This document shows, one piece after another, positions 136-23,351 of a DNA stretch of 64,000 nt (positions are counted from its first letter, which is position 1; every line of letters begins with the position of its first letter). Position numbers and translations under genes: made by a program. The DNA lies in IMG/VR virus record IMGVR_UViG_3300029989_000005; one strand, given 5' to 3'. A model generated the notes under the pieces. The model was given only the letters and a program-made list of their open reading frames with translations. It was not told where the DNA came from and did no database searches. This DNA is from a virus.

Positions 136-795
136 TTACACTTTGTTTTTATTATTTATTTTATAAATTGTTTTTGTTAACCAATATTCAAATTTGGTTA
201 ACCAATTTTTAGATTTTATGTTTGAATAATACAGTTCAAATATTGGAATGTGATTGAATTCTGAGGTTTCTTTGTTGAGTATTTCTATACCAGTATCGGC
301 AGTTACACAGTTATGCACTTTGATACCATTAGCAACGAATACATGCATTTTGTTACTTATAGTTAAGTCAAATACTCTATGAAATCCCAATATTTTTTCT
401 ATCGATTTTACCTCCTCACAGAATCCACCTGAATTTATAACACTATATTTGCTGCCTGTATGCATATCAATTTTGTGTTTGAGATCAGCAATAGAAAAAA
501 ATTTATCATTTCCTTTTAACACCTCTGTAACCTGATATATAGGAAGTATATGGTCTTGGGTGGCATATAAGGTTTTACCACCATATGTTTCAAGTTTGTA
601 TAATCTTTTTATACCTGTGTAATGAACATGGGTTATTTTTGACTCTTGATCTTCATCTATGTTTACAAAATACCCAAATTTACTTATGTTATAAGACCTA
701 TATTCCTTATAAATCATAAAATATTCTAAGACCTCTATTAATTTAATAGAGGTCTTATATACACATATTTTTAAATTATTTAACAATATTATCAT
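136..795 (-). CDS. extein-less tandem split-intein protein: atypical IntC (to ...KVHN) fused directly to an IntN (CVTADT...), TerL-type
   Basis: Block B ATQDH, block F VFDLTI...VFVANGIKVHN, then Cys (codon 309-307) starting block A CVTADTGIEI...IPIFELYY; true start may be ATG 717. Confidence 0.8.
   Translation of the reverse strand: MIILLNNLKICVYKTSIKLIEVLEYFMIYKEYRSYNISKFGYFVNIDEDQESKITHVHYTGIKRLYKLETYGGKTLYATQDHILPIYQVTEVLKGNDKFFSIADLKHKIDMHTGSKYSVINSGGFCEEVKSIEKILGFHRVFDLTISNKMHVFVANGIKVHNCVTADTGIEILNKETSEFNHIPIFELYYSNIKSKNWLTKFEYWLTKTIYKINNKNKV
727..757. terminator. perfect inverted repeat (15-bp arms, 1-nt spacer), probable terminator or processing hairpin
   Basis: TAAGACCTCTATTAA-t-TTAATAGAGGTCTTA just downstream of the 776..1255 gene. 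Confidence 0.55.
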
Positions 796-1255
796 ACGCC
801 AATTTATAATCCTCGTTAGTCATTTCGAAGATTGTTTTAATTCTATCCTTTTTAACTATTGATATTATCTCACTATCAGACATATATCCTACCTTGCTAA
901 TATATTCAGATATTTTTTTATATGCATCACAGCTATCATTTGAAACATAAAAATTGTTGGTTGCTGTTTTATTACCTTCACCCGTACTAAATTTAACGGC
1001 TACTTTGTAATAAAAATCGCTATCATCACCAACAACACCCTCAATTTCTTCCTTCAATATCTTTTTGAATTCAAGTTGCTTTCTGTTTTCAATAGATATA
1101 CATTCTTTACATATCATATCAAGATTTATAAGTTCCTTGAATATATTTTCAGCATCTGTATAATTTAGTGCGGGAATATAATATTCTTGTGTCTTTGGTA
1201 CTATTCCGAAGTCCGTTTTGGTTTCTTCTTTAATCAGTGCTTTGAAGTACATCAT
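776..1255 (-). CDS. DUF4494-like protein (Bacteroidota-associated)
   Basis: YFKALIKEE...KTQEYYIPALNYTDAE...YYKVAVKF pattern resembles DUF4494. Confidence 0.6.
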   Translation of the reverse strand: MMYFKALIKEETKTDFGIVPKTQEYYIPALNYTDAENIFKELINLDMICKECISIENRKQLEFKKILKEEIEGVVGDDSDFYYKVAVKFSTGEGNKTATNNFYVSNDSCDAYKKISEYISKVGYMSDSEIISIVKKDRIKTIFEMTNEDYKLAYDNIVK

Positions 1256-1276
1256 AGTTTTTAAATTTTAATTTTG

Positions 1277-2863
1277 TTAATAGTCTTTAGATATATTTAT
1301 TTTTATTTGTTCAACCTCGAATTCCTCAGATACATAATAGGAGTAACGTTCCTTTCCCCATTTATGCATATAAGATACAATTGACTCCAATTTACCTGTT
1401 GTCAAATTTTGTTTCTTTGTGTTAGTAGATTCAACTACATCATAAATATATGTCATATCTTTACCCTCATAAAGACGTGCCAATCTACCCATAGTTTGAT
1501 TATTAGTTGTACTAGATTTAAATGCCTCACCATACAAAATATTAACTAAGTTTTTGATTGATTGACCCGTTGAGAAAGTTAAATAGTTTGCAACCAATAT
1601 ACAGTTACCCTCAGTATGATTTTTAATTTCGCTTTTTATTATTTCTCTTGTTGATACCTCTACATCACCATCGATAAAATATATCTTTTTACCAAGGTTT
1701 TGGTATATATTAAGTTCAATAAGCCTTTCATATATTTGTTTGCCATATCCACCTTTCTTGTCTGTAAAATAAACTAATGTGTTTCCTTTCATTTTACTAA
1801 CCAATTGACATTTCCATTCAAAAAGTCTTCTGTGTGATCTTACAAATTGCTGTTCATACCTTAATTTTTTCTCAGGGTCATCTATATATTCCTTATCAAT
1901 AGCTAATTGCAATTTTTCCTTATCACTAGCAAAATCAATTATTATTTGTTTTATTTTACAATCTGTTGTAGCACCTGCAGAAACCAAATCCCTCTTTGAA
2001 ATTATGTATGATATAAGACCAAAATTATCCTCGTTTGTGAAATGTTCAGAATTATCACCAACCTTTGGGTGTGAGCCTGATAGACCAACTCTGTTCATAA
2101 GTACACCACAATTTTTAATTATATTCATTATGGATGATGATGTAGACCTATGAGATTCATCACAAAATACTGTATCAAATTTAGATAAAAAAGTTTCATC
2201 TAAATTTGCCAAAGTTTGAAAATTACCAATTATATGATCAAATTTACCTATATTCTTTTTATCCTTTGAATCACCATAAGCCATACCCATCTTAAGGTTG
2301 AATCTACCATTTGAATAGTCAGTAAATTCTTGATATGTTTGTATTACATATTGTGGGTCAGGCTCTATAATAAGTATGTGATGTGCCTGACCTGTATATC
2401 TAAGAAGCATCATTAGTAAATACATGGTAAGTGTTTTACCACCACCCGTACCAACATCAAGTCTTGAGAACCTATATTTATAAGCATTGTATATCGATTC
2501 TACTTGGTAATCATAAGGAACTATATCATCGATATGTTCTGTCATGCTGTAGCAAAATTTTTTAACCTGATCATAAGTTATATTATCTCTTATTAGATTA
2601 TCAAAATTTTGAAGTTGTATAGGAAATCCAAATCTTTCACACATAGTCATTAAATTAGACCATTGTGTTGACTTTAATTTATCAGCACCTATCATATAGT
2701 TTATAATACCATCAAGTCTTTTACCTTTAGCTTTCAATTTCTTTTGTAGAAAATGGAAATTATCTATTTTCTTCCTGAAGTAAACAGATGTTTGTAATTG
2801 TTCAGCCTCTGTTTCAAAAAACAGAGTTATATATTGTAAATCATCAGATAGTTTAGCAATCAT
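1277..2863 (-). CDS. uvsW: UvsW-like SF2 DNA helicase
   Basis: PYDYQ Q-motif, GTGGGKT Walker A, DESH, GLSGS, FSTGQSIKNL, QTMGRLAR. Confidence 0.88.
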   Translation of the reverse strand: MIAKLSDDLQYITLFFETEAEQLQTSVYFRKKIDNFHFLQKKLKAKGKRLDGIINYMIGADKLKSTQWSNLMTMCERFGFPIQLQNFDNLIRDNITYDQVKKFCYSMTEHIDDIVPYDYQVESIYNAYKYRFSRLDVGTGGGKTLTMYLLMMLLRYTGQAHHILIIEPDPQYVIQTYQEFTDYSNGRFNLKMGMAYGDSKDKKNIGKFDHIIGNFQTLANLDETFLSKFDTVFCDESHRSTSSSIMNIIKNCGVLMNRVGLSGSHPKVGDNSEHFTNEDNFGLISYIISKRDLVSAGATTDCKIKQIIIDFASDKEKLQLAIDKEYIDDPEKKLRYEQQFVRSHRRLFEWKCQLVSKMKGNTLVYFTDKKGGYGKQIYERLIELNIYQNLGKKIYFIDGDVEVSTREIIKSEIKNHTEGNCILVANYLTFSTGQSIKNLVNILYGEAFKSSTTNNQTMGRLARLYEGKDMTYIYDVVESTNTKKQNLTTGKLESIVSYMHKWGKERYSYYVSEEFEVEQIKINISKDY

Positions 2864-2864
2864 A

Positions 2865-3383
2865 TTAATTTATATTATTTCTGTGTATAAACAAGTATCT
2901 TTCATCAAGTCTTTCAACATCATAAATATATGTGAATAATGCAATTATAAATTTATTGTCTTTGTCTTTACAACCGAACCTTTTATAATTTTTAAAGTAT
3001 TCACATGCTTTAGATACTATATATTTGTTGCTACTTGTTATAAGTAGTTCAAACACCTCGTTAAACTCCCTAGTTTCTATATATTTCATATTATATTCTT
3101 TCCTGAATTCAATCAGCTCTTTATATGTACTACATGCACGATTATGTATACGTTGCCTCCAATAGTCTATCCTTAAGTCAAGATAAATTATTATAATTTT
3201 AGTAATACTATAGACGATAACGTATGCACATATTCCACATAAAAATGCACTCATAAATGCATCTTTAATACACGATATGCTTGCCAAAAAAATACACAAA
3301 AACACAACAGACATGCATATTTCCCACAAAGCAGCCTCTTTTTTTAATGTTTCTTTTATGTGCTTAAATATTAAATTTCCCAT
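2865..3383 (-). CDS. hypothetical membrane protein (2 N-terminal TM segments)
   Basis: two hydrophobic stretches near the N-terminus; tightly packed in the operon. Confidence 0.6.
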   Translation of the reverse strand: MGNLIFKHIKETLKKEAALWEICMSVVFLCIFLASISCIKDAFMSAFLCGICAYVIVYSITKIIIIYLDLRIDYWRQRIHNRACSTYKELIEFRKEYNMKYIETREFNEVFELLITSSNKYIVSKACEYFKNYKRFGCKDKDNKFIIALFTYIYDVERLDERYLFIHRNNIN

Positions 3384-3386
3384 AAT

Positions 3387-3938
3387 TTATAATTTTTGGT
3401 ATTCTTCTAATTTTAATACTAATTCATGCCCAAACGTCATATCGGAAATATTTTTAATTGTTTCAACTAGAAAATTTATATGATTTTCAAGTAGTGATAT
3501 ACAATATTGATACTGTGAAAGATTTGATTCTAAAAATATCTTTCTTTCTGTATCGTTTGATGGCTTTATACCATCAGGATTGTTTCCGAATTTATATTTT
3601 TTGATTTCTTTTTCCTTAATAACAGCCACATCCTTTGACAACCATATTAAATCATCAATAATACACTGTTTCCGTATTATGATTGTCTGTCTATCATAAT
3701 AAAACCTGTTTTTTGATTTTGATAGAAGTACAACATTTTTCAAATTATAACTAAGGTCTTGTATGTTTTTGGATATTTTTTGAACATCATGTTCCTTCCT
3801 TTCTTCAATAAAAACTGATATTTCAGATATATGATTTGATAATATATTAGAATTTATGAGGCTTTTAATTGGTTTATTGAGGTCATATATGTTTTCAGAA
3901 GATTCCGACATTTTTGGTGTTTTTATTTTTATTATCAA
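3387..3938 (-). CDS. UvsY-like recombination mediator
   Basis: helical protein ending HINFLVETIKNISDMTFGHELVLKLEEY, like the UvsY C-terminus; near uvsW. Confidence 0.5.
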   Translation of the reverse strand: MIIKIKTPKMSESSENIYDLNKPIKSLINSNILSNHISEISVFIEERKEHDVQKISKNIQDLSYNLKNVVLLSKSKNRFYYDRQTIIIRKQCIIDDLIWLSKDVAVIKEKEIKKYKFGNNPDGIKPSNDTERKIFLESNLSQYQYCISLLENHINFLVETIKNISDMTFGHELVLKLEEYQKL

Positions 3939-4048
3939 TAATGGTGGTTTTTTTCACAGGTATAATGTTGGAAATTTTAGCTTTAGGAATAGACATATTC
4001 CTAAAGCTAAAATCAATTTCCAAATCATTATCAAATTTAAGTAGTTTT

Positions 4049-6796
4049 TTAACCTTTTTCATTACCTGATCTCATGTTTGTTATTTTAATTTCAGAAAAA
4101 TTATTATCCACAGTCATTTCTATTTTATTATCAAAAAATGTAGGATTAATTAATGAATGATTTACCAAGAACACATCCATATTTAAACCATCTACTATTT
4201 CTTTTTTGGTTATTTCAAGTATTATTGGTAACATTGAAACATGTAATGAAGAAAATATTTCATCAAGGAAAACAACATTAAGATTTGTGCATTTGTTTTT
4301 AATAAATTTGATTATTGTGATAATGATTGAATAATCAATCATTTTGGATTGACCTAGAGATATCGTTCTGTATGAAACATCGTTCCCAAATCTGTATATA
4401 GCGGGTTTGAATTCATCATCAAACTTTATAGCCAAAGGCAAATCAAATTGATTAAGTATACGATTAACGGATTGATTAATGTATGGTATAATTTTACCAA
4501 TTATAAAGCTTTTTATTCCTTTGTCAGAAAGTGAGTATTCAATTAATTTTAAGAATAGCAATATTGTATTGGTGGTATTATATTCCTTTAAAATATTTTC
4601 AACCTGTTTATTGTATTCTATTAATTTAACTTTCATTAAATCCTTATTGTTGGTTATAATTAGCTTATTATTGTTTATGGTTTGAAGATTTTGATTTATT
4701 TCGTTGTTAATTTCTTTATTCTCTTTAGCAACCATTTCAGATTTAAGTTCCAATTCTTTCAGTTTGATCTGAGCAGTATCTAATGAGTCAAATTTTGTTA
4801 TGCATTGTTCAAATTGTGTTTCGTCATTGGATAAGCGATTTTTCAGGTTTTCTATATCTTTTTCTATATTTACTTTGCGTTCAGATTCAGATTCAATTAA
4901 TTTTGAAATAGATTTCTCTTTAAGTTCTTTAAGTCTATTCTCTGTTGCGGCAACATTATTGTCAGTAATATCAACAAGACCATATTTAAGTTGGTTGATT
5001 TCAGTTGATTTGGTTTTATCAAATTTATCAACCTCTCCTTGATATATTCTTTGTTTTGATGTGGTTTCGTTATATTCTTTGCTTATATTATCAAGTTCTT
5101 GTTTTTTAACATCAATGTTTTCAGATACCTCAGAAATTTTTACTTTCATATTAGCAAGCATTTCATCATCTTTACCAAATTTTATCATATTTTCAGTTAC
5201 CAAATATGTATTAAGCAGCTTATACCAATTTGTGAGTGTTTCAATTACCTCGTCTGTTGTTATGCTAGCAAGTTGCGTATTAAAGATAATTTCTGATACA
5301 GGATTAAAATTTGATTTAAGTTTTAATTTAAATTCAATCATTTTTCTTTTGGCTGTATCTATATCAGTACCAACTTTAACAATCGTTTCATTCTTAACTT
5401 TCAATGAATCTTTTAAAATAGGAAGCTCCCTACCAAATTTCTCATTAAGCTCCTCAAGTTCAATTATTTTATGCTGATGATCAACATCCTCGAATGAGGT
5501 TTCACAGGTTGGACACATACCCGATTTATAAAGACCTATAAGCCTTTCATTATTCTTTACGTTATCTGATTTTGAATTAATATTAATTTGCTCTTCATCA
5601 CGCAAATTAATAAGTTCATCATATTGCTTTGAAAGTTCATTTTTAAGGCTTAGCTCTCTTGTATATTGATTCCTTGTTTCTTTTATATTATTGAAATCCT
5701 CAATAGATTTTTCAATAATATTATTGAAATCATTATACAATTTATTTTGTACTAAGAGATTATATTCATCCCGTATTTTTATAGCTTTTTTTGATTGTTC
5801 AGAAGACTTATAGTTGAGTTCTGATAACAACGACAAGTAGTCATTATATTGCTTAAGAGAATTTTTCTTGTAATATGTCTGAATGTCTGAAATAATATTA
5901 TCTATTTCTTCCGAATTCTTTTTTTCTGATTTTCTGAGGCTATCTATATTGACTTTAACTTTTTCAAGTTCAAGTTCCTCAGATTTTATAGCTATTTTTG
6001 CCTGTTCATTTGTAGAGTATTCAATATATTTAAGAGCTATATCATATTCTTTTTGACATTCCTCTATACAAACAATTTTATTGTTGGATATTTCAGTTTT
6101 TATTTTATTTCCTTCTTCAAGTATTTTTATTTCCTGTTCAAGCTCTGATATTCTTTCATCACTATCTAAACTATTTTTCAATTTTTCAATTTCGCTTTCT
6201 ATGAAATCTTTTTTTATAGTATTTTCCGTTAACTTATCTACATATTTTTTGATTCCAACTTTATTCTGTTCATTCATTTCATTTAAAATATAGAACCCGA
6301 ATATTCTGTCACGGATAAGTCTAGTGTCTTTGGCGGACATTGCTATAAAGCTTTTAAAATCAGCCATTGAAAGCGATACAATATTTGAAAATATATGGTA
6401 TTCAATATCTAAAATATTTTCATATATATATTTTTTGGTTTCAGGTAGCTTGCCTGTATCCAAAATCACATTATCTTTTGTAATGATTATGGATTTCATG
6501 GATGATTTAGTGTAATTACTCTCAATAGACCACACACTATTAAACGATTCAAGTTCCACCTTGATATAACCATTACCATTTATATCATTTGAAATTTCTG
6601 ATACGTTAATTGGAACTTTATCAAAATACATTCCTAATTTAAGGCAATTGATCAATGATGATTTGCCACTACCATTTTTACCCAACAATATGTTCATTGT
6701 TGGTTGGTTATTATTGGATAAATTTTCAAAGTCAATAAATTGTTTGTTATTTCCAAACAACATTACATTCTGCAGGGTAAGTGATTTTATTTTCAT
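4049..6796 (-). CDS. gp46/SbcC/Rad50-like recombination ATPase
   Basis: GKNGSGKSS Walker A, long coiled coil with CPTC zinc hook, ISLGQ signature, VFLDE Walker B, H-loop. Confidence 0.92.
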   Translation of the reverse strand: MKIKSLTLQNVMLFGNNKQFIDFENLSNNNQPTMNILLGKNGSGKSSLINCLKLGMYFDKVPINVSEISNDINGNGYIKVELESFNSVWSIESNYTKSSMKSIIITKDNVILDTGKLPETKKYIYENILDIEYHIFSNIVSLSMADFKSFIAMSAKDTRLIRDRIFGFYILNEMNEQNKVGIKKYVDKLTENTIKKDFIESEIEKLKNSLDSDERISELEQEIKILEEGNKIKTEISNNKIVCIEECQKEYDIALKYIEYSTNEQAKIAIKSEELELEKVKVNIDSLRKSEKKNSEEIDNIISDIQTYYKKNSLKQYNDYLSLLSELNYKSSEQSKKAIKIRDEYNLLVQNKLYNDFNNIIEKSIEDFNNIKETRNQYTRELSLKNELSKQYDELINLRDEEQININSKSDNVKNNERLIGLYKSGMCPTCETSFEDVDHQHKIIELEELNEKFGRELPILKDSLKVKNETIVKVGTDIDTAKRKMIEFKLKLKSNFNPVSEIIFNTQLASITTDEVIETLTNWYKLLNTYLVTENMIKFGKDDEMLANMKVKISEVSENIDVKKQELDNISKEYNETTSKQRIYQGEVDKFDKTKSTEINQLKYGLVDITDNNVAATENRLKELKEKSISKLIESESERKVNIEKDIENLKNRLSNDETQFEQCITKFDSLDTAQIKLKELELKSEMVAKENKEINNEINQNLQTINNNKLIITNNKDLMKVKLIEYNKQVENILKEYNTTNTILLFLKLIEYSLSDKGIKSFIIGKIIPYINQSVNRILNQFDLPLAIKFDDEFKPAIYRFGNDVSYRTISLGQSKMIDYSIIITIIKFIKNKCTNLNVVFLDEIFSSLHVSMLPIILEITKKEIVDGLNMDVFLVNHSLINPTFFDNKIEMTVDNNFSEIKITNMRSGNEKG

Positions 6797-6906
6797 TTGA
6801 TTTTATTTTTTCGTTTAGCCTTATTCTTTCTACAGGTGTCTCTGTGCTTAATTTCCTGTTTACCTTCTTTGCTGTCTTTATATTCAACTAATTTATAAGC
6901 TTTCAT
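6793..6906 (-). CDS. small basic hypothetical protein (37 aa), not in ORF track
   Basis: MKAYKLVEYKDSKEGKQEIKHRDTCRKNKAKRKNKIK*; stop overlaps the gp46 ATG (ATGA) and the ORF follows a promoter. Confidence 0.55.
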   Translation of the reverse strand: MKAYKLVEYKDSKEGKQEIKHRDTCRKNKAKRKNKIK

Positions 6907-6922
6907 ATATCAATTTTCATTT

Positions 6923-6951
6923 TTATATTTATATTAGTCCTTAGTTGTCTA
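6923..6951 (-). promoter_or_regulatory. sigma70-like phage promoter TAGACA-N17-ATATAA
   Basis: same spacing as seven other copies in the window. Confidence 0.6.
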
Positions 6952-6957
6952 ACACAG

Positions 6958-6987
6958 ATTAGGCTGTAGAAGTTTCTACAGCCTAAT
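6958..6987. terminator. inverted-repeat terminator
   Basis: ATTAGGCTGTAGAA-gt-TTCTACAGCCTAAT after the 7006..7401 gene. Confidence 0.7.
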
Positions 6988-7005
6988 AAGTTTATGTAAT
7001 ATTTT

Positions 7006-7401
7006 TTACTTTACTTTATATAATAAAAAATCAACAACGACATTGGTGACATTATTGTTGGTTATTTTTATATCACCACTTGTAAATACCAAGTGCTGTG
7101 CATTAAACACTTCTTGTGTGGGTTCAATTTTTTCCAATAATATTATTTTAGAATCTTTTATGAACATACAAACATTATCACATGACATTGTAATGGATGC
7201 ATCAGGTTTTAATGTTATGGTTGATTTGTCAACATTACCATCAACGTTTATTAAAAAATTACCCAAATAAATGGAGTTTCCTGATTGATTGTTGAATACC
7301 GATTCACCTAAAAATTCTACAGTGTTTATAGTCTGTAAAATTTTTTTGTCGTATTGAATCAATTCCTCAGGTGTTTCATTACCCGTTATCTCTTTTGCCA
7401 T
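7006..7401 (-). CDS. hypothetical protein (beta-rich)
   Basis: ATG-start ORF directly after nrdJ, followed by a terminator. Confidence 0.6.
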   Translation of the reverse strand: MAKEITGNETPEELIQYDKKILQTINTVEFLGESVFNNQSGNSIYLGNFLINVDGNVDKSTITLKPDASITMSCDNVCMFIKDSKIILLEKIEPTQEVFNAQHLVFTSGDIKITNNNVTNVVVDFLLYKVK

Positions 7402-7413
7402 ATCTGTATAAAA

Positions 7414-9423
7414 TTAAACTGAATGTACTTCACAACTACCACCCGCACAAGCTGCCTCACGTGTTGTTTCCTTATTTATTGAAACGTTTACCAATGATAA
7501 ATCAACTTTTTCGGGCATCATGGACATCATATATTCATAGTGTGCTTCGTCTATTTTTTCAAATGGCATTTGCCTATAAGAATTATTAGTTTTAGGTAAT
7601 AACGTTAATCCTGCACATTCAAACCTGTTTTTCCAAATCCAATCGATTACCTCCTCTACATCTTCGTTATCAACATGTATCGTTGCTGAAACATTATTAT
7701 AGGATTTACCAACTCTATGACCATTACGTATCCAATTAACATTATATCTTTTTATACGTTCAAGAAGTTCAATAGGCGATTCCATTTCCGTAATACAGCC
7801 ATCGGCACTTTTTAGAGGAAGAGAAAGCACCAATTTAGAGGAGTCCATTACATCATCCTCAATAAAATCAGGCATTATTGATTTTAAATATGCTGCAATA
7901 GGTTGATCTTTTTGTATCCTTAATCTTCTAATATATCTATCAGAAAATGCTGAATGTACACCCGCACCAAATGCCTCAGCTACCAACGTTGTAGTACCCT
8001 CAGGTTTAATACATGTAACTCTATCGGCTTTATTTATACCAATCAAATTGGCTACTCTTTCATTTTCATTTATTGCACATTTTGCAGCCCAACTTTCATC
8101 TAAATTATCAATTTTCCTACCCGCTATACCTGTAATTGAAACACCAAGAAGTGCTTGTCTTTGTGCTTTCTCTTTCCAAGAATATCTGATATAATGAAAA
8201 TCAGTAAATCCCGCTTGTAAAGTTCCAAAAAAAGCAGACATCCTAGAACGGTTGTTGAAATCCTCTTGATCATCAATATCATAGGCGTTAATAGTAGTTA
8301 AATTACAGAACGATTCTGACTCAAAGACAATCTCACCACATGGATTTGAAAGTAAATCTTCGGAATTAGTAAATAAAATTCCTGGCTCTCCCGTTCCGTT
8401 TGATATTGATTTTCTCATTATAATCTTAAATTCATCTTCTGTAATATTATCATATGTTTCAGAAACTGAATTATTAGACATTGCTCTGTGTGGGTAAACA
8501 TGATACCATTGAATCTGATTATGTCTTAACATTGCAATGTCATTAACACTATCAGATGGAAATTTTACTATATGAGTAAGATTATCTTTTGTAGTAATTT
8601 CATAAACGTTATAACCATCGTCACCTGTAAGTATCATTTTATGTGATTTGAATTGTACAATACCCTTGGCATTAATTATATCCAAATCATCTTTATCAGC
8701 AAATATTATAATAGCTGCAGAACGTATTCCACCCGAAACAACAGCACCCGCAATAATAGTTATAATGTCCAAGCATTCTATTGATGTTAGCTGTCTTCCT
8801 ATTGCATTTTTAAGTATTTTGTCAATTTCCCTTATAGCTTGCTTTAATCTTGAACTACCAGGAGCTAAACATTGCAATTTTTTAATTTCAGTACCTTTTT
8901 TACGTATGTCTGAAAAATCAAATGTAGGATAATTTGTGCCCCTAAAATAAGAATACACCAACATACGAATTGCATCAGCCCAACCCTCTATATTGTCAGA
9001 AATTCTGAATTTTTTTGCTTGTGCAGGTTGTATTACAGGTGGTAATTTACTTATACACCTTTTCTTTAATGAAACACCAACACCACAACCCGAAAGTGAT
9101 AAAAACATTACCTCTGAAAAGACTTTAATATCATCAAGTTCTATGCCCGAACAATTATACATTCTAGCGTGATTGTTTTCTATGGGAATACCAGCATATT
9201 GTAATGCCCGCATAGACGGAAATACCTTTTTATTTTTGATGTATTCTCCATTTGTAAGTATTTCATCTTCAATATGTGGGTATTTGCGTACCATCATTTT
9301 TAGGTATTCATCAACTATTTCATCCCAATTCATTTTTCTTTTAGTTCCATCTACATTTTCGGTTGTTCTAGAATATTTTGTGAAAACAACAATATCTGAT
9401 AATAATTTGTCGGGGTTAATCAT
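7414..9423 (-). CDS. nrdJ: class II (adenosylcobalamin-dependent) ribonucleoside-triphosphate reductase
   Basis: FPSMRALQYAG, ARMYNCS, GCGVG, VVSGGIRSAA, NPCGEI, TCIKPEGT, C-terminal CAGGSCE. Confidence 0.92.
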   Translation of the reverse strand: MINPDKLLSDIVVFTKYSRTTENVDGTKRKMNWDEIVDEYLKMMVRKYPHIEDEILTNGEYIKNKKVFPSMRALQYAGIPIENNHARMYNCSGIELDDIKVFSEVMFLSLSGCGVGVSLKKRCISKLPPVIQPAQAKKFRISDNIEGWADAIRMLVYSYFRGTNYPTFDFSDIRKKGTEIKKLQCLAPGSSRLKQAIREIDKILKNAIGRQLTSIECLDIITIIAGAVVSGGIRSAAIIIFADKDDLDIINAKGIVQFKSHKMILTGDDGYNVYEITTKDNLTHIVKFPSDSVNDIAMLRHNQIQWYHVYPHRAMSNNSVSETYDNITEDEFKIIMRKSISNGTGEPGILFTNSEDLLSNPCGEIVFESESFCNLTTINAYDIDDQEDFNNRSRMSAFFGTLQAGFTDFHYIRYSWKEKAQRQALLGVSITGIAGRKIDNLDESWAAKCAINENERVANLIGINKADRVTCIKPEGTTTLVAEAFGAGVHSAFSDRYIRRLRIQKDQPIAAYLKSIMPDFIEDDVMDSSKLVLSLPLKSADGCITEMESPIELLERIKRYNVNWIRNGHRVGKSYNNVSATIHVDNEDVEEVIDWIWKNRFECAGLTLLPKTNNSYRQMPFEKIDEAHYEYMMSMMPEKVDLSLVNVSINKETTREAACAGGSCEVHSV

Positions 9424-13615: not shown

Positions 13616-13664
13616 TAAAACGATATATTCCTTAATTTACGGGATATATTTCCCTTATATTCTA

Positions 13665-14057: not shown

Positions 14058-14454
14058 ATTTATAATGCTTTCAGTGATAATAATATTATCTCAGTCAGCA
14101 TTATCTCAGTCAAGGAATTGTGACAGCATAAAAAATGTTAAGTTAACAATTTGTGATATGGATGACATTACAACAGTTTTCCGTGACAGAAGTAAGTTTA
14201 TAAAATTGAACTCAGTGAATGATTCAATATTTGTTAATGATTCAACTTTGATTTCCAATTATAAGAGAGAAATCAAAAACGATTCAGAAATAATATTGAA
14301 CTTAAAGAAAAATAGTGTAGATGATAATCTTATAATAGACAATCAGAAAACTGTGATTAAATCTGAGCAAAAGAAAACTTTGTTTTGGAAATCAACAACC
14401 TATATAAGCGGTGTTGCCGCTACTGTTTTTTTAATTCTTACTTTATTAAAATAA
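14041..14454 (+). CDS. putative spanin-like partner (signal peptide, coiled coil, C-terminal TM)
   Basis: N-terminal signal-like segment, C-terminal ISGVAATVFLILTLLK. Confidence 0.4.
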   Translation: MKKVSKFIMLSVIIILSQSALSQSRNCDSIKNVKLTICDMDDITTVFRDRSKFIKLNSVNDSIFVNDSTLISNYKREIKNDSEIILNLKKNSVDDNLIIDNQKTVIKSEQKKTLFWKSTTYISGVAATVFLILTLLK

Positions 14455-14455
14455 A

Positions 14456-15823: not shown

Positions 15824-15835
15824 TATCAACTGATT

Positions 15836-16057
15836 ATGATTATTATTATATTATTGTTAGGAATTTTTATATTTATACCATTTATATCCACGTTTGTTTT
15901 GGGTTCTATAATTCTTTATAATGATTTATTTCATAATATACCATATAAAGAATTATACAAAATAAATAAAGCTTTCAAGACCTCATATATATTTTTCTTA
16001 TCATCATTAATTGTATTTATTATTATCATTTTATTTTTAAATAAAATAAAATTGTAA
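15836..16057 (+). CDS. small 2-TM membrane protein
   Basis: two hydrophobic segments; coupled to neighbours. Confidence 0.5.
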   Translation: MIIIILLLGIFIFIPFISTFVLGSIILYNDLFHNIPYKELYKINKAFKTSYIFFLSSLIVFIIIILFLNKIKL

Positions 16058-16758
16058 TGGTTACGCAGAAAGCTATTTCACCAATAACATATTTCTCAAT
16101 AGAAACTAGACAGGAGATTGAAATTAATGCTGATAAAATTATAGACTTTACAGATCAAATTTTTTCAAGCAAAAAGGCGGTTAATTTCAATCATAATGGA
16201 ACTTTTATTATATCACCCGAATTTGAAGGTAAGCCAAATTTGGTATCATATGCATTATATACAGATCAAAATGTTGCCGATATAATGATGTTTTATAGTG
16301 AAATAAGCAATCCATTTTCTATTTCATCTGATATGATTGTTATGATGCCTGATATTTCTGATGCTGTTGGTGCTGTGAATTCTCAATCATCTGAGGTAAC
16401 AAAGAAGAAAAAGAATAAATCGCAAATAGAATTTGCGAAGAACATTAATGTTCAAGACAAAAAGCGTGTTATGGAACTGATAAGACAAAGTAACCCATCT
16501 AGCGTTACTTTATCAGACATATCCAATATAAATGATGCGGGAATTAATACAAAAACAGGTAAGGTATCAACATTAGATGATTATATAAAATCACCCAACA
16601 TGACAACATCTGATCAACTTAAGATAATTGATGGGAAAGTTATATTGGGTGCTAATGTAAGTAGTAAAAAATGCTCTGATTCAGCAACAAAATCTCAGGG
16701 CTTATCAACATCAATAAGGCAATCAATACTTGCTAAAATAAAAACAGGTGAAATTTAA
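16057..16758 (+). CDS. baseplate wedge protein gp53-like (LysM-like)
   Basis: EGKPNLVSYALY...IMMFYSEISNPFSI motif. Confidence 0.6.
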   Translation: MVTQKAISPITYFSIETRQEIEINADKIIDFTDQIFSSKKAVNFNHNGTFIISPEFEGKPNLVSYALYTDQNVADIMMFYSEISNPFSISSDMIVMMPDISDAVGAVNSQSSEVTKKKKNKSQIEFAKNINVQDKKRVMELIRQSNPSSVTLSDISNINDAGINTKTGKVSTLDDYIKSPNMTTSDQLKIIDGKVILGANVSSKKCSDSATKSQGLSTSIRQSILAKIKTGEI

Positions 16759-16761
16759 ATT

Positions 16762-17199
16762 TTATTTTGATGTTCTTCCGTAATAAAACTCCAAAGTACT
16801 CTTGATGGATTTTCTAACATCCTCCATATCCAAATTGTTTATTATTATATCAATAATTTCCTCTTGCTTTAAATCCTGTTCGAACAAATCTAATAAAAAT
16901 TTAAATGTTTTTTTATCGTAAACCTGTAGATTTATTGTAGACTTTAAAGGAATCTTTGACTTCCTAGATAAAATTTCTATAATTGTGCTTTCAACCTTTG
17001 GTGTATTTTTTGTAAATTCCGATTTAATCATATTTATTCCCTCTTGCCTCACAGGTCTGTCTTTCGGCTTCAACATTATATTATCTACCTTTGTTGAGTT
17101 ATCTGTAACTGATATCTCACTAGTGGCTTTTAATATACCTTCCAATTCGGGGTCAAAAAAATTACTATCTTCTGTTTTAGTGCTTTCAGGGGTGTCCAT
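16762..17199 (-). CDS. hypothetical protein
   Basis: ORF fills gap; no recognised motif. Confidence 0.55.
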   Translation of the reverse strand: MDTPESTKTEDSNFFDPELEGILKATSEISVTDNSTKVDNIMLKPKDRPVRQEGINMIKSEFTKNTPKVESTIIEILSRKSKIPLKSTINLQVYDKKTFKFLLDLFEQDLKQEEIIDIIINNLDMEDVRKSIKSTLEFYYGRTSK

Positions 17200-17252
17200 A
17201 ATTTTTATACGTTTATATGTTTATATGCTTAATTAAGTTATGTTTTCATGAT

Positions 17253-17281
17253 TTGATACTATTGTAATAACGTGAATATAA
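17253..17281 (+). promoter_or_regulatory. sigma70-like phage promoter TTGATA-N17-ATATAA (gp47-purZ operon)
   Basis: recurring motif. Confidence 0.6.
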
Positions 17282-17298
17282 ATGTATAAAACAATAAT

Positions 17299-18429
17299 AT
17301 GATTACAATACCCGATATAAATATTGTTATAGGTGATTTACATTTTGGTAGATATAGCAATGATCTGAAAGAGTTAGAAATATCACTTAACTATTTTAGA
17401 AAATTTATTTTGCCGATTCTTGATAAGTTGAATAAAGCATATGGTGCTGAAAATGTTGGTATAATACAAGTTGGTGATGTATATGATAACAGATCATTAA
17501 TTTCAACCGAAATACAAGATTCAATACTCGATACGTTCGAAAAAATTTCTGAGCACAATATTGTTGTTGTTGATACGGGTAATCATGATAAGTTTAATCA
17601 AACAATAACAACAAATCGTGTGCTATCATACATAAGTAACTGTATTGTTGTAAGACAGCCTACAAGATTTTTAACAAAAAGCGGTAAAAAGGTATCATTC
17701 ATCCCCGCAATTGAAAATAAAGATGGATTAGCTGAGGTTATATCAAACGATGAATACGCTGATTATATGTTTGGTCATGATGATATAGCGGGATTTTCTC
17801 ATGAAGGAATTATGGTAACCGAGGAAAAATCTATTAATATGTCACATTTTTCCAAGTATAAGCATGCTATCATCGGTCACATCCACAAGCCACAAGAGAA
17901 CAAAAATATAGTTTATGTTGGTGCAGCATATCACACAAGGAAAAATGAGTGGGAAAACAAACCACAGATTATGATAATAAATATTGCCGATGAATCATTT
18001 AAATATATAGAAAATAATGTATCACCAAAATATTTAAATGTATATCTTCCCGATTTATTGGATATGACTGTTACCGATGCAAATGATTTAATTAAAAATA
18101 ACAGGGTTTCCGTGTTTGTTGATGATTTTAATAGAATAAGTACAGTAAAGATAACTGAATTTCTTACAGGTTACTATTCACTTAAATATGAACAAAAAGT
18201 TGGTAAAATATATTCACAGAATGAAATAACTAATTCTGATGAAAATGTTGATTTTGATATAAATGATGATATCAAAGATATTATGTCAGAATACGTTACA
18301 TCATTAGATTCTGTGATTATAGATAAGAAGCTAATTCAAATTTCAGCGGTAACAAAGGATAAAATTATAAATAACCTTAACAAATTATATGAAATATCTA
18401 AAGACAATGTGAAAATGTTGGATATATAA
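17299..18429 (+). CDS. gp47/SbcD/Mre11-like metallophosphoesterase nuclease
   Basis: GDLHFG, GDVYDNR, GNHD, GHIH motifs. Confidence 0.9.
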   Translation: MITIPDINIVIGDLHFGRYSNDLKELEISLNYFRKFILPILDKLNKAYGAENVGIIQVGDVYDNRSLISTEIQDSILDTFEKISEHNIVVVDTGNHDKFNQTITTNRVLSYISNCIVVRQPTRFLTKSGKKVSFIPAIENKDGLAEVISNDEYADYMFGHDDIAGFSHEGIMVTEEKSINMSHFSKYKHAIIGHIHKPQENKNIVYVGAAYHTRKNEWENKPQIMIINIADESFKYIENNVSPKYLNVYLPDLLDMTVTDANDLIKNNRVSVFVDDFNRISTVKITEFLTGYYSLKYEQKVGKIYSQNEITNSDENVDFDINDDIKDIMSEYVTSLDSVIIDKKLIQISAVTKDKIINNLNKLYEISKDNVKMLDI

Positions 18430-18472
18430 AAAGGAAAATTAACCATTATTAAACCATTTATTAATTACAGCT

Positions 18473-18838
18473 ATGCAAGAACTTATTAACAAATTAGCCA
18501 ATTTAAAAAACGGTTTACAAGTCAAGAAATCTTTTAATACTCTCGATGAAATTTACAATAAAACGTATTTTACAGAGATGGTTAAGCATTTTGACACCAC
18601 CATTTCTGAAATTTCTGAAGGTGTAGTAAACCGTTCTACCATTTCTCTGAAAATATTGGAGTATACATCATTAATTGATGAATTAATTGAAAAACGTAAG
18701 AAAATCGAGAATTTTAACGACAAAAATTCCACTATGGAAAGATCAAAGATCACGTCATACATTGATTTTTTAACTCAGCTCAAGGATGTTTTTAATGAAG
18801 AACTTGGTGAAGAATTAAAAGACACTTATAAAAATTAA
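18473..18838 (+). CDS. hypothetical helical protein
   Basis: ORF between gp47 and purZ. Confidence 0.55.
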   Translation: MQELINKLANLKNGLQVKKSFNTLDEIYNKTYFTEMVKHFDTTISEISEGVVNRSTISLKILEYTSLIDELIEKRKKIENFNDKNSTMERSKITSYIDFLTQLKDVFNEELGEELKDTYKN

Positions 18839-18841
18839 TAT

Positions 18842-20245
18842 ATGTCACATTCAAAAACGCTTTTTAACCCCTTTTTTAAAGAAGGGAAAATTTCATTCAT
18901 TATGGATGGGTTCGCTGGGAGTAGTGGAAAGGGTCTTTTAGCATCAAATTTGGTAAAATACAGCAATAATTGTAATTTTGCTGTTTCAACCAATGGTCAA
19001 AATGCATCTCATTATTATGAGGAAAAATTTCCTGATGGTACAGAAAAAATTATTTTATTCAAAGTACTTCCTACATCATCTGTTTATCATGAAAAACTTG
19101 ATGCAGTATATGTTGCTCAGGGTGCTGCCTTTGAACCTCAAAGATTGCTTGAGGAAATTGAACTTACAGGTATACCACGTGGCAAGGTAAGAATTCATTA
19201 CAAGGCGGGGATTATTTCCAAGCAAGACAGAGATTTTGAATCAGGTGTTTGTAATTACGAGGGTAAAGTTAACGAGGAACGCCAAAAGGGAACAGTTACC
19301 TCAGGTACAACCGCTAGCGGTGCGGGTTCTGTACGTGCCAAAAAATGTATGAGAAATCCTGATCAAAGGATTTATGCATATGAATATCCTGAATTACAGG
19401 ATTTTTTGTGTGATACAGAACGTGAAATTATGGACAGACTTGATGCGGGTCAGTCAGGGCTTTTCGAAATTGCTCAGGGCTTTGCATTATCAAGTGGACT
19501 TTCATACAGTAAACGTAACACAACGGCACGTAACTGCTCAATTACTGCAGCCATGGATGATGCAATGATTCCACCATTTTATGCGGGTAACGTATTTATT
19601 AACTTGCGTACATTCCCTATTAAAATAAACAATAAAAAGTGGGTTTTAAAAGGTGGTATTCAATATTATACTACAAATGAACTATCATTATCTGAGGTTA
19701 AGGCAAGATTTGATGAAAGGTTGTTTAATTTCGAAGATAATGAAGATTATTTGGTAAAAGTCATAACCAAAAAGGATATTTTCCTTACGGGATTTGATTT
19801 GGAAAAATACCCAAATATTCCATATGACGAAATTGATTCTTATTCTGGCGATTGGTATAGAAATGGATGGGAAAAACCCGAAACACAGGAAGAACTTACT
19901 TGGGAACAGGTTGAGGCTCAATATGGTGGTGTGATTGATAAAAAAGCAATTTATACATCGCTTACTCTTATGCCAAGGAGAGTAGCCACATTCTCAAAAG
20001 AATTGCTTGTTGATGCAATAAGATATAACAGACCATCTAAAGATTCTGAAATTTTTCTATCTTTAAATTTCTGTAATTGGCTTGATAAGGAGATTGAGGG
20101 TAAAACCAAATTAACTGATACTACTCACAAAGTAATTGAGTGGCTTGAAAGCAATTTTGATGTTATCGATGAATTTGATAACGTATCACTTTCAATACTT
20201 GGAACAGGTAAATGGGTTGGAGAATTTATTAGCTTTCCAAGATAA
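18842..20245 (+). CDS. purZ: PurZ-like 2-amino-deoxyadenylosuccinate synthetase (adenylosuccinate synthetase family)
   Basis: DGFAGSSGKG (Ser at PurA Asp13), NASH, KVLP, EIAQGFALS, RTFPIK, QEELTWEQ, TSLTLMPRRVATFS, LNFCNWL (NFxN instead of TKLD). Confidence 0.75.
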   Translation: MSHSKTLFNPFFKEGKISFIMDGFAGSSGKGLLASNLVKYSNNCNFAVSTNGQNASHYYEEKFPDGTEKIILFKVLPTSSVYHEKLDAVYVAQGAAFEPQRLLEEIELTGIPRGKVRIHYKAGIISKQDRDFESGVCNYEGKVNEERQKGTVTSGTTASGAGSVRAKKCMRNPDQRIYAYEYPELQDFLCDTEREIMDRLDAGQSGLFEIAQGFALSSGLSYSKRNTTARNCSITAAMDDAMIPPFYAGNVFINLRTFPIKINNKKWVLKGGIQYYTTNELSLSEVKARFDERLFNFEDNEDYLVKVITKKDIFLTGFDLEKYPNIPYDEIDSYSGDWYRNGWEKPETQEELTWEQVEAQYGGVIDKKAIYTSLTLMPRRVATFSKELLVDAIRYNRPSKDSEIFLSLNFCNWLDKEIEGKTKLTDTTHKVIEWLESNFDVIDEFDNVSLSILGTGKWVGEFISFPR

Positions 20246-20262
20246 TACCTATTGATTATACT

Positions 20263-20299
20263 TTTGAAGAGGATAATTGTTATAATTATCCTCTTCAAA
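20263..20299 (+). terminator. inverted-repeat terminator after purZ
   Basis: TTTGAAGAGGATAATT-gttat-AATTATCCTCTTCAAA. Confidence 0.7.
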
Positions 20300-20324
20300 T
20301 ATATTTAAATAATAAAAAATTGCT

Positions 20325-21119
20325 ATGGCAGATGAATTCAATAATGAGATGAACGTTAAAAAGAATTACGAAAATGTATTCTTACGGTCTGTAATTGTTT
20401 CTTTCACATCTTTCATGTCAGACATAATTGAATTTGAAAGACATAAAAAAGGTAAAACTGAAATTATTAAATGCCCTGTGTTTTATTCATATACAGGTGA
20501 TCAGGCTTTTCTGTCTGATATGTTTTTAGATTCTCACAGATTTCCATATAGTGGCGGGAAACAATTAGCTGAGGGTAATGTAATGCCTATACCCTCAGGT
20601 ACATTTTCTGTCAAAGAATCGGGTGTACAAAATTCTAGTGTTAGTGGCGGTAATGAAAGGATTTTATATTTTGTAGACGAAGAAAATGAGCACGGTGTAC
20701 AACCGCAAGTTCCGTATTCAGCAAGGGGTGTGTGGTTTCCTGAATCATTTTTGGTGGATTTAGAAATAAAAGCATCATCAGAGCTAGATAGGTTGAAAAT
20801 ATATGATGCTATAATAGAAAACTTGTACAAAACTAGGAAAACTTATATAGATGATTATAAAGGGTTTAAAAAGATACCTTTAACAATTGCATTTCCTGAA
20901 ACACAACAATTAAGTAGATCATTTTCATTTTTTGCCAATTCACAAAGCGATTTACCATCTTTAAAATTGCAATTGGAAATTTATACAAAAAGACCTATAA
21001 TTGATAAATCAACAGCACAAAAACTTGATACTAAAGTTAAAAGTATACATATTGATGAATATTTGAAATCGGTTGGAGAAGAGGGAAACGAATTATTAGG
21101 TAGTTCAGATATTAATTAA
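20325..21119 (+). CDS. tail terminator / sheath stabiliser gp15-like
   Basis: FLRSVIVSF...EIIKCPVFYS N-terminus resembles T4 gp15; TAAATAA at 20306. Confidence 0.6.
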   Translation: MADEFNNEMNVKKNYENVFLRSVIVSFTSFMSDIIEFERHKKGKTEIIKCPVFYSYTGDQAFLSDMFLDSHRFPYSGGKQLAEGNVMPIPSGTFSVKESGVQNSSVSGGNERILYFVDEENEHGVQPQVPYSARGVWFPESFLVDLEIKASSELDRLKIYDAIIENLYKTRKTYIDDYKGFKKIPLTIAFPETQQLSRSFSFFANSQSDLPSLKLQLEIYTKRPIIDKSTAQKLDTKVKSIHIDEYLKSVGEEGNELLGSSDIN

Positions 21120-21124
21120 AATTC

Positions 21125-22258
21125 ATGGCAAATATAATTAAAATACCAACAGAACCTATTGAACAAGTATTATCACAACCGTATAAAACTGACACGGTTG
21201 GATATTTTGTTAATATATTTAACGGTAGGTCTAAAGCATCTAAACGAAAATTTAATTTTCCTGATAAAGGACAAGCGGCTCAATTTTATACTGATAATTC
21301 GGGCAAATGGAGAATAGATTTCACGGATTTATCAGGTAATTTATTAGCTGATGAAAAAAGCTTGTTATTTGATTCAAGAGCTTTAGCATATTCACAATAT
21401 GCTAAACTAATGAGCAAAAATAAGGAAGTTATAGAAAATACAGAGGATGATGTAGAGGATATAGTTATTGAACAACTTGAAAGGACATTTGAGCAATATC
21501 TCCCATCATTGGTAAAAAGTCAACCAAAAAGAAAGTCAAATTTCAGTGATCTACCCAAATTTGATGATGAAGATGAAGATGAAGAACACGAAAAAGAACA
21601 TGATGAGGATGTATTACAAGCTGAGGAAAAATACATACAGGCATCATCTATAGCACTTACAGAGGCAAAAAGCTTATTAGGCTCTATAGCTGAACTTTAT
21701 ATCGAAAAAGGTGTTATAGAAAAATTTCCGTATTTCAAAAATAAATTATATTTTGAGGAGAATTCTATACAAATGATTCATACTCAAATGATGATTTCGC
21801 AGCTTGTGCTTAAGAAATTTTTTAAACAAGTAATTAAAAATCCTACAGCTAAAAACATTGAATCACTGTCTAAAATACAAATGTCACAATTAGCCTTGAG
21901 TAAATATCAAAGGGAATACTTGTCTGATGTCGAGGAATCTTTCAAAAAACTCAAGAAAGATTATGTTAATGGTGAATTTGTTAATCAGTCAGGAATAGAG
22001 GAAGGTGAGGTTATAATACCTGATACACCTGTTTTCAATGATAGGAAAAAATTAATAATGGAGCTTTCTGAGGTTGTTGAAGCTGATGATTTAATACCTC
22101 TATCGCCCAATCAGAATTTAAGAAATAATATCAAAGATAATGAAAGAAACAGGTATGAAACATCGTTTAAAATTCACACTCAAAGTGAATCATCTAAAGA
22201 CGAAGAAATACTTGTTGAAAAAAACGCTGAGGATATATTTAGCAGCTTTATGGACTAA
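21125..22258 (+). CDS. hypothetical, possible terminase small subunit
   Basis: helical/acidic; immediately upstream of the TerL ATPase fragment. Confidence 0.35.
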   Translation: MANIIKIPTEPIEQVLSQPYKTDTVGYFVNIFNGRSKASKRKFNFPDKGQAAQFYTDNSGKWRIDFTDLSGNLLADEKSLLFDSRALAYSQYAKLMSKNKEVIENTEDDVEDIVIEQLERTFEQYLPSLVKSQPKRKSNFSDLPKFDDEDEDEEHEKEHDEDVLQAEEKYIQASSIALTEAKSLLGSIAELYIEKGVIEKFPYFKNKLYFEENSIQMIHTQMMISQLVLKKFFKQVIKNPTAKNIESLSKIQMSQLALSKYQREYLSDVEESFKKLKKDYVNGEFVNQSGIEEGEVIIPDTPVFNDRKKLIMELSEVVEADDLIPLSPNQNLRNNIKDNERNRYETSFKIHTQSESSKDEEILVEKNAEDIFSSFMD

Positions 22259-22262
22259 CACA

Positions 22263-23351
22263 ATGGGACTATTAGAAATTTTGGAAAAAACTTTAAATGC
22301 TATATTAAAAATAGTTATATTTTTAAATTATAATCTGTGGAAATATAAAGTTGAGGAAGACTGTATAATTAGTTCCTCTATTCCTAAAGATAATTTATTG
22401 GTAAACGGTATAAAGGGTGGTCAATATTTATCGGCTGTCCATATTAAGACAAATGCCGAAATACTTAAAATAACTACTAAAAATGGATGCTTTGTAAAGT
22501 GTTCTGTAAATCATTTGTTTTATGATTCAAATATGCAGATAATTGATGCTAATAACGTAACAAGGCAGACATTTTTAATCACAAAACAAGGAATATCACG
22601 TGTTGTAAAAGTAGAAAAATTACCTAGACAATTTACTTTTGATGTTACAGTTGGTTCAGGAGAAATGAGTTATTTTTCTAATGATATACTGAGCCATAAT
22701 TCTATTACATCAGGTATTTTTATAATGTGGTATTTACTTACCAATTATGATAAAGGTGTCGCATGTACTTCGGCAACCGATGATAAAGTTAAAGAACTTA
22801 TAGAAAAGATAGATACAATATACGACAATTTGCCATTTTATATGAAACTTGGTATATGTGTTGATAATCAAAAGAGGAAAATATATGATAATGGCTGCTC
22901 AATAAAAGGTGAAACAGCAACAGAGAAAGCGGGTGCAGGTCTTACTGTTAACGGTATACTTTACTGTGATGAATTTGCACTGATTGACCCACAGGTATTA
23001 AAAATATTCTATCAAACTATTTTTCCAACAATGTCATCGTCAAAAACAGCAAAGATGATAATTACATCTACAGCAAGAGGCAGAAATTTATTTTGGCAAT
23101 TGTACACTGATGGATTACTTGGTAAAAATTATTTCAATCCTATACGTGTAGATTGGTTTGATGTTGAGGGTAGAGATGATAAATGGAAACAAGAGGAAAC
23201 AGCCAACATAGGTTCTGAGGAAGCATTTGAGCAAGAGTATGGAAATAGTTTTGATACCAATCAACAATTACTTTTGCCATCTGATGTTATGAAGTCATTA
23301 AAATCATATCAATCACACTTTACAAATAATCGGCTTTCCAATGCATCTTGA
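22263..23351 (+). CDS. atypical split-intein C-fragment (22263-22700) fused to terminase large subunit ATPase fragment
   Basis: KCSVNH (block B), FDVTV...YFSNDILSHN|S; extein SITSGIFIMWY follows the Walker-A GK position; ILYCDEFA Walker B, IITSTARG, FEQEYGNSF as in T4 gp17; likely start ATG 22263. Confidence 0.9.
   Translation: MGLLEILEKTLNAILKIVIFLNYNLWKYKVEEDCIISSSIPKDNLLVNGIKGGQYLSAVHIKTNAEILKITTKNGCFVKCSVNHLFYDSNMQIIDANNVTRQTFLITKQGISRVVKVEKLPRQFTFDVTVGSGEMSYFSNDILSHNSITSGIFIMWYLLTNYDKGVACTSATDDKVKELIEKIDTIYDNLPFYMKLGICVDNQKRKIYDNGCSIKGETATEKAGAGLTVNGILYCDEFALIDPQVLKIFYQTIFPTMSSSKTAKMIITSTARGRNLFWQLYTDGLLGKNYFNPIRVDWFDVEGRDDKWKQEETANIGSEEAFEQEYGNSFDTNQQLLLPSDVMKSLKSYQSHFTNNRLSNAS

Follow-up and report, generated by a model that had tools for sequence, protein, structure and literature searches.

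The stretch of viral DNA analyzed here, 64,000 nucleotides (nt) of the IMG/VR record IMGVR_UViG_3300029989_000005 (hereafter the window), carries two separate pieces of the large terminase (TerL) of a T4-like phage, together with an open reading frame (ORF) composed of a C-terminal intein fragment (IntC) joined directly to an N-terminal intein fragment (IntN). The latter ORF is hereafter called the relay. The window has approximately 29% G+C and uses the standard genetic code, with TAA accounting for 50 of the 55 stops when ORFs of at least 70 amino acids (aa) are taken as genes. The features under discussion are the following, the fragments being numbered after the intein (1 or 2) to which they would belong:

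136-795, minus strand: relay ORF, 219 aa, with a TAA stop at 136-138.
310-795, minus strand: IntC1, relay residues 1-162.
139-309, minus strand: IntN2, relay residues 163-219, from direct reading of the translation.
22263-23351, plus strand: IntC2::TerL ATPase ORF, a second IntC without block A fused to the ATPase.
22263-22700, plus strand: IntC2, residues 1-146, from Pfam and PHROG matches and alignment with the gp41-1 intein.
22701-23351, plus strand: TerL ATPase core, predicted C-extein of intein 2 (phrog_2, E-value = 7e-19).
44018-44854, plus strand: TerL nuclease domain as a separate gene (BLASTP against LR756500 TerL residues 369-621, E-value = 4e-23).

IntC1 begins with an N-terminal amphipathic helix (approximately residues 2-28) and continues with block B (T79..H82), block F (D143) and block G (H161-N162), while neither a block A nor an endonuclease domain was found within it. 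C163 directly abuts H161-N162, leaving an extein of zero length, and opens the block-A-like CVTADT of IntN2, which is followed by PIFELYY and by a C-terminal amphipathic helix (approximately residues 198-216), the gene ending 57 aa past N162. The Pfam profile Intein_splicing (PF14890) matched relay residues 50-162 with its positions 34-155 of 155 (E-value = 3e-6, 27.4 bits). A profile of the relay family aligned with DnaB mini-inteins of the PDB only from approximately intein position 48 onward (E-value = 1e-6). Concerning the AlphaFold2 (AF2) model of the relay, all 50 structural matches listed were inteins, intein-like or hedgehog HINT domains, the best one with a Z of 8.5 and a root-mean-square deviation (rmsd) of 5.2 over 97 aligned residues, and most of the chain ranges among these matches start approximately 20-45 residues into the intein. 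The Pfam range, the start of the PDB alignment and the starts of the AF2 matches thus characterize the relay's N-terminal part as an IntC without block A. The HINT fold was also recovered with the model of a homologue, P0069 (Z 9.9, rmsd 3.2, 107 aligned residues). An initial annotation, made from the sequence alone, had described the ORF as a block-A-less IntC ending in HN and followed, with no extein, by a 57-aa IntN; Pfam, the PDB profile, AF2 and direct reading all bear this out. Cys163 would have a double role, being +1 nucleophile for intein 1 and Cys1 for intein 2.

The second IntC is located in front of the TerL ATPase and has the same composition: an N-terminal helix, block B (S81..H84), block F (D127) and block G (H145-N146). 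Residues 56-146 of the fusion align with positions 38-128 of the gp41-1 intein (E-value = 3e-6). The ATPase core begins at Ser147, the residue next to the Walker A GK, and the junction reads H145-N146/S147 (the slash marks the boundary between intein and adjoining sequence). From coordinate 22701 onward the piece is 40% identical to the TerL of the uncultured phage LR756500.1 (tblastn). The gp41-1 alignment, the phrog_2 match and this tblastn result agree with the HN/S junction and with the fusion of an IntC to the TerL ATPase after GK, both of which had been proposed before. The ORF stops with TGA in the linker between the TerL domains. An alternative genetic code was rejected, since 50 of the 55 stops are TAA and readthrough of TGA and TAG lengthens the TerL piece by just 10 residues before a TAA is reached. 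Cys34 of the same piece was rejected as the hidden block A of a complete mini-intein, because residue 56 corresponds to position 38 of the intein in the gp41-1 alignment, which leaves block B too close. The nuclease domain of TerL, present as one copy in the window and one in the relative G001, is separated from the ATPase core by 20.7 kb; G001 and another relative, G002, share this split, and no intein motifs were seen at the break between the two domains. In G002 an ORF (L036:5945-7219) is located directly 3' of the ATPase piece; it is homing-endonuclease-like by eye, and Pfam gave only a weak YacG zinc-finger match.

A motif scan revealed no gene within the window that combines Walker A with an IntN. 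The initial annotation had predicted such a TerL-N gene, with GK followed by a short IntN, elsewhere in the genome, and we were able to identify it (P0010) with the TerL-N gene of a relative (locus L005) as query. P0010 encodes 168 aa, namely 110 aa of TerL ending in SRQSGK and then a Cys (C111) that opens a 58-aa IntN (IntN1). It is located 14,140 nt before the window start in the same genome (38 of 38 index words shared), and 172,977 bp is the size of the longest contig both for P0010 and for the window relay. TerL is therefore interrupted inside Walker A, with SRQSGK/C on P0010 and HN/SITSG on the ATPase piece. The catalytic motifs are complete for intein 1 (C111 of P0010, T79..H82, H161-N162 and C163) as well as for intein 2 (C163, S81..H84, H145-N146 and S147). 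Approximately 28 aa of IntN1 (58 aa) and of IntN2 (57 aa) belong to the HINT fold, the remainder being helix, and the alignments of IntC1 (162 aa) and IntC2 (146 aa) with solved inteins start at approximately position 38-48. Each IntN and IntC fragment bears an amphipathic helix of 20-30 aa at the split site. Unrelated genes lie between TerL-N at -14 kb, the relay at 136-795 on the minus strand and IntC2::ATPase at 22263 on the plus strand, and the adjacency of a fractured gene (IntN, endonuclease and IntC on one strand) is not seen in the window genome.

The relay belongs to a family. Four close homologues (218-225 aa) are 47-73% identical (alignment A1), and an exhaustive profile search led to seven distant ones (198-232 aa), which are 24-32% identical to the window protein and have a common plan of helix, IntC, HN/C, IntN, PI[FY]E[LI]YY and helix. 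All relay homologues share, without variation, the His of block B, the Asp of block F, the H-N-C junction and one Glu and one Tyr of the IntN; the catalytic residues are invariant in alignments A1 and A2, and the His, HN and Cys in A3. The family comprises at least eight clusters at 50% identity and its best-conserved part is the IntN2 tail. This pattern of conservation, with motifs kept down to 24% identity, indicates that the relay is under purifying selection. With the window relay as query no match was obtained among viral and metagenome contigs, and P0050, P0015 and P0069 gave none among viral contigs.

Two relatives, G001 (167,485 bp) and G002 (150,379 bp), are 100% complete according to CheckV. 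TerL-N::IntN1, the relay, IntC2::TerL-ATPase and the nuclease gene are each present exactly once per genome, and an unsplit TerL was found in neither of them. No further intein fragment was found in G001, and none in G002 by Pfam scan alone. The combination of one TerL-N::IntN and one IntC::TerL with no unsplit TerL is thus shared by the window genome, G001, G002 and the collinear locus described below. Additionally, the members of the G002-type relay cluster and of the TerL-N cluster have four longest-contig sizes in common. Cyanophage and Sinorhizobium phage matches were discarded as split relatives, given that their TerL is intein-free and the IntC overlap is a weak extension of the alignment. 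In G001, a 325-aa ORF (L001:11230-12207, minus strand) is located 0.55 kb from the relay on the opposite strand; it harbors a CxxC pair at the N-terminus, like that of a zinc finger, and a motif (EYDG..W.H) resembling Vsr/DUF559-type endonucleases, and may be the remnant of a mobile cassette.

Other relatives present different arrangements of the same parts. In LR756500.1, TerL is in two pieces, and TerL-N::IntN, a Vsr-like (DUF559) endonuclease and IntC::TerL are adjacent, as in a classical fractured gene. Neither LR756500.1 nor LR756501.1 has a stand-alone relay, and the relay profile divides between their IntC::TerL and TerL-N::IntN genes. The LR756500.1 IntN is somewhat nearer to IntN2 (local scores 62-70) than to IntN1 (47-52), and its IntC is somewhat nearer to IntC2 (99-100) than to IntC1 (68-86). 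This 462-kb phage genome also gave 11 Intein_splicing matches, several of them with internal stop codons, and other genes of this phage may hold many inteins, or copies that are split and decayed.

The metagenome contigs L039 and L038 share an overlap of 2,255 bp (99.96% identity) and together form a collinear locus, in which TerL-N::IntN, a Vsr-like endonuclease, a relay, a GIY-YIG-like endonuclease and IntC::TerL follow each other on one strand. The fractured-gene adjacency is therefore found both here and in LR756500.1. Compared with the LR756500.1 cassette, the first unit of the locus presents 45% identity in the IntN, 44% in the endonuclease (E-value = 7e-103) and 48% in the IntC, and this part-by-part match indicates that in the collinear locus the TerL-N IntN and the relay IntC have a joint descent as a single element. 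P0069 (376 aa), which is present on two contigs (the longest of 167,903 bp), consists of TerL-N, an uninterrupted intein 1 in which the two helices directly adjoin each other, HN, Cys and an IntN2-type tail, and on its sequence it reads as the first step of the relay built in cis. At residues 107-109 its intein 1 seemingly starts with Ser (GK/SCDGE...), and it ends in HN/C. The combination of Ser1 with Cys+1 is rare and has been reported for GOS-TerL (PMC11766414). Two further natural middle pieces come from metagenomes: P0107 comprises a short IntC, an extein of approximately 85 aa and an IntN, and P0090 an IntC, a 7-aa extein and a complete intein; serial inteins therefore exist with short exteins as well as with none.

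With regard to the distinctness of the two inteins, within the window genome IntN1 and IntN2 are approximately 29% identical and IntC1 and IntC2 approximately 28%. The local-alignment z is 1.4 for both comparisons, and for IntC1 and IntC2 of G001 it is 7.4. Between the window and G001 or G002, respectively, the identity is 65% and 46% for IntN2, 74% and 51% for IntC2, 56% and 34% for IntN1, and 43% and 25% for IntC1. Identity thus declines pairwise, remaining higher for IntN2 together with IntC2 and lower for IntN1 together with IntC1. A search with the IntN2 tail returned the relay family only, so IntN1 has no 5-residue word in common with IntN2. Across the relay family a single conserved IntN2 type is fused to very different IntC types, as expected if the two halves of the relay come from different inteins. 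Gene order, cassette homology, P0069 and these conservation patterns favour the pairing of IntN1 with IntC1 and of IntN2 with IntC2, and the two pairs would then be orthogonal.

Taking the observed sequences, their conservation and co-occurrence and the collinear relatives together, we consider it quite probable that the relay is an obligatory adaptor for two-step trans-splicing between the N-terminal piece of TerL and its ATPase piece. Two atypically split inteins would then stand in series at the P-loop of TerL (GK/S), with the relay as the extein-less middle piece, and established class 1 intein chemistry would provide the following steps. In step 1, IntN1 of P0010 would dock on IntC1 of the relay and ...SRQSGK (K110) would be joined to Cys163, giving TerL-N::IntN2. 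Docking would probably be aided by the C-terminal helix of IntN1 and the N-terminal helix of IntC1, acting as a built-in dimerization tag; in the P0069 model the split-site helices (H129-153 and H156-178) are adjacent, at low confidence. In step 2, IntN2 would dock on IntC2, Cys163 would serve as Cys1 and K110 would be joined to Ser147. The product would have its Walker A GKS restored without a scar and would contain zero residues of the relay. The reverse order would lead to the same product, but intein 1 would then need Ser as +1. The nuclease domain, encoded by a separate and intein-free gene, would presumably join non-covalently. A requirement for the relay is suggested by the fact that, with IntN1 able to use IntC2 directly, selection would have no function to maintain in it, yet its catalytic residues have stayed invariant among deeply diverged homologues. 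The sequence of reactions, in which TerL-N::IntN1 reacts with IntC1-IntN2 and the result with IntC2::ATPase, had already been proposed in the initial annotation, and it gains support from P0010, the co-occurrence in G001 and G002, the collinear locus, P0069 and the two-piece phages that have no relay. The same annotation regarded the arrangement as an AND gate on packaging, an idea for which we found no support, the stacking of selfish elements being a simpler explanation of the data.

Concerning the origin of the arrangement, a cassette of split intein and homing endonuclease would have entered a TerL that was split beforehand, at the point where its GK codon meets the Cys1 codon. The three genes would later have dispersed in the phage lineage of the window. 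Insertion of one cassette at the extein-intein junction of another is probably the simplest origin, and the stacked cassettes can be seen, by analogy, as a protein-level counterpart of a twintron. We hold with moderate confidence the broader proposal that TerL depends on a relay of two orthogonal, helix-zippered, atypically split inteins whose adaptor gives no residue to the product, was born by homing of a cassette into an extein-intein junction, was then locked in as an essential gene, and belongs to a widespread family of ready-made orthogonal pairs with short IntN.

Several observations weigh against the proposed adaptor. The PF14890 scores of the relay (27.4 bits) and of IntC2 (19.9 bits) are both under the gathering score of 35.8 bits, as expected for fragments without block A, and the relay of G001 reaches 35.9 bits only when neighbouring in-frame matches are summed. 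In G002, TerL-N::IntN1 and IntC2::TerL are 2 kb apart on one strand and the relay is 47 kb off, a spacing that is also compatible with an originally direct pair of IntN1 and IntC2. The two IntCs of the collinear locus (IntCa and IntCb) have 45% of their residues in common, and fragments could therefore cross-react there. In the AF2 models, the IntN2 tail is undocked in the relay alone, with a predicted local distance difference test (pLDDT) score of 42-55, and in P0069 it is packed on IntC1 (pLDDT 83-93), much as in split-intein circular ligation of peptides and proteins (SICLOPPS). The G002 spacing and the IntC identity, together with the fact that all inteins presented here form a single broad family of TerL P-loop inteins with helix tags, would suit a direct reaction of IntN1 with IntC2, the relay being the dispensable remnant of an intein that was duplicated or that invaded, or at most a modulator; in a variant of this explanation, cross-reacting fragments would let the relay merely convert TerL-N::IntN1 into an equivalent TerL-N::IntN2. 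We regard this as unlikely, since decay would be expected of a dispensable gene that lacks its own endonuclease, yet the relay is intact with invariant catalytic residues in approximately eight clusters at or below 50% identity and has been kept in both complete relatives. The identities of only approximately 28-29% between IntN1 and IntN2 and between IntC1 and IntC2 also argue against it, as does the TerL-N IntN of LR756500.1, which is somewhat nearer to the IntN2 type than to the IntN1 type.

The P0069 model raises a different explanation, in which the relay complements itself like a circularly permuted intein: IntN2 would fold on IntC1 of the same chain or of a swapped dimer, and the relay would only undergo self-cleavage at Asn162 or would compete for the fragments of TerL or act as their decoy. 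Apart from the packing of the tail, residues 204-347 of this model align with the SICLOPPS structure 5ol1 across the HN/C junction (Z 7.6, rmsd 3.5, 112 aligned residues), and IntC-(extein)-IntN is itself the SICLOPPS order. However, a groove left empty is filled by AF2 with whatever IntN-like strand is present, and the alignment behind the P0069 model (A4) favoured IntN2, as it leaves the N-terminal part uncovered and places IntN1 rows on IntN2; the N-terminal part of P0069's own intein 1 has a pLDDT of 32-42. In this setting AF2 cannot separate a cognate from a non-cognate IntN, and the pairing outcome of the models is ambiguous. A Cys that is both Cys1 and +1 of the same intein allows no ligation or cyclization product, and in a relay with no extein this would exclude both. 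The IntC and IntN of the relay also evolve discordantly, which is unexpected for a cognate pair, the tail is undocked in the model of the relay alone, and the canonical order of IntN1 and IntC1 is present in P0069 and in the collinear locus. Self-complementation is for these reasons very improbable in our judgement. We give still less credit, and in fact hardly any, to a purely non-covalent scaffold, in which splicing has been lost and the intein fragments hold the TerL pieces together via their helices and HINT fold. Two domains of this TerL, ATPase and nuclease, are indeed separate genes already with no intein between them, and a precedent has been reported, a fragmented ribonucleotide reductase assembled by interaction domains derived from a mobile element (PMC3045599). 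Against such a scaffold, the nucleophiles and catalytic residues are all kept (Cys1 of IntN1, the block B His, HN, Cys163 and HN/S of IntC2), and, with the break inside Walker A, approximately 400 residues of intein fragments would remain at the ATP site.

Apart from TerL, the family-B DNA polymerase appears to be split too. In the window the candidate for its N-terminal part is a 492-aa ORF at 24209-25687, near the TerL ATPase piece, and in G001 (L005:9388-10605, minus strand) and G002 (L036:1201-2412) an ORF that resembles by eye the C-terminal part of the polymerase is located directly upstream of TerL-N::IntN1. At these polymerase ORFs, Hint motifs were not seen. At 37185-37436 of the window, an 83-aa ORF ends in a block-A-like ...NICVDKDTDLIN, with 10 residues after the Cys and the next gene 2 nt on; this resemblance is probably due to chance.

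If the two-step adaptor is real, it would be the first natural example known to us of a protein made of intein halves only that serves as a traceless adaptor between two trans-splicing reactions, and it would illustrate how selfish elements can stack at one site and become an indispensable gene. It would also account for orphan IntC and IntN genes whose presence in the genomes of phages is otherwise hard to understand. The family could offer many naturally co-evolved and probably orthogonal split inteins with a short IntN, whose built-in helical dimerization tags could serve multi-fragment protein ligation. As far as annotation is concerned, the terminase of these phages must be pieced together from four genes.

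A full-text literature search of incomplete coverage, which as such is no proof of novelty, returned neither a natural IntC-IntN adaptor without an extein nor a case of inteins stacked at the same junction, only engineered tandem trans-splicing. Atypically split TerL inteins are known, namely the GOS terminase intein (PMC2677866) and AceL-TerL, GOS-TerL and the consensus intein Cat (PMC11766414). The inteins presented here share with them the split just past block A, which leaves a short IntN with little beyond that block and a long IntC with blocks B, F and G, as well as the host, the large terminase of T4-like phages; the likeness considered here is one of layout and host. The structure of the Cat IntC (6dsl) aligns with the P0069 model (Z 7.6, rmsd 2.5, 93 aligned residues). 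In contrast to the known systems, which are single pairs joining two TerL exteins, two inteins are here in series via an extein-free piece, and each fragment carries an amphipathic helix of 20-30 aa at the split site. Fractured genes consist of an IntN, a free-standing homing endonuclease, of which Vsr-like (DUF559) and GIY-YIG-type families have been named, and an IntC, and the GOS terminase intein is such a locus, with the endonuclease gene between its halves (PMC2677866). LR756500.1 and the collinear locus L039/L038 carry this exact unit, and their endonucleases come from these two families. The differences are that two units are stacked at one site, so that the middle gene is an IntC plus the next IntN, and that in the phage of the window the three genes occupy both strands, at distances of 14 kb and 22 kb, and the intervals contain no endonuclease gene. 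SICLOPPS constructs (5ol1, 5ol5, 5ol7), with which the P0069 AF2 model aligns, also have IntC before IntN in one chain, but in those constructs the halves of one intein flank an extein that is cyclized, whereas the relay has no extein and its halves seemingly come from different inteins. A further parallel is engineered tandem trans-splicing and three-fragment ligation with orthogonal split inteins (e.g., PMC7210297, PMC12707363), in which a middle fragment IntC-X-IntN undergoes two sequential reactions that lead to one chain. Those systems are man-made and their middle piece donates a peptide or protein segment, whereas the relay is natural, its X has a length of zero, and one Cys would serve both as +1 of the first intein and as Cys1 of the second.

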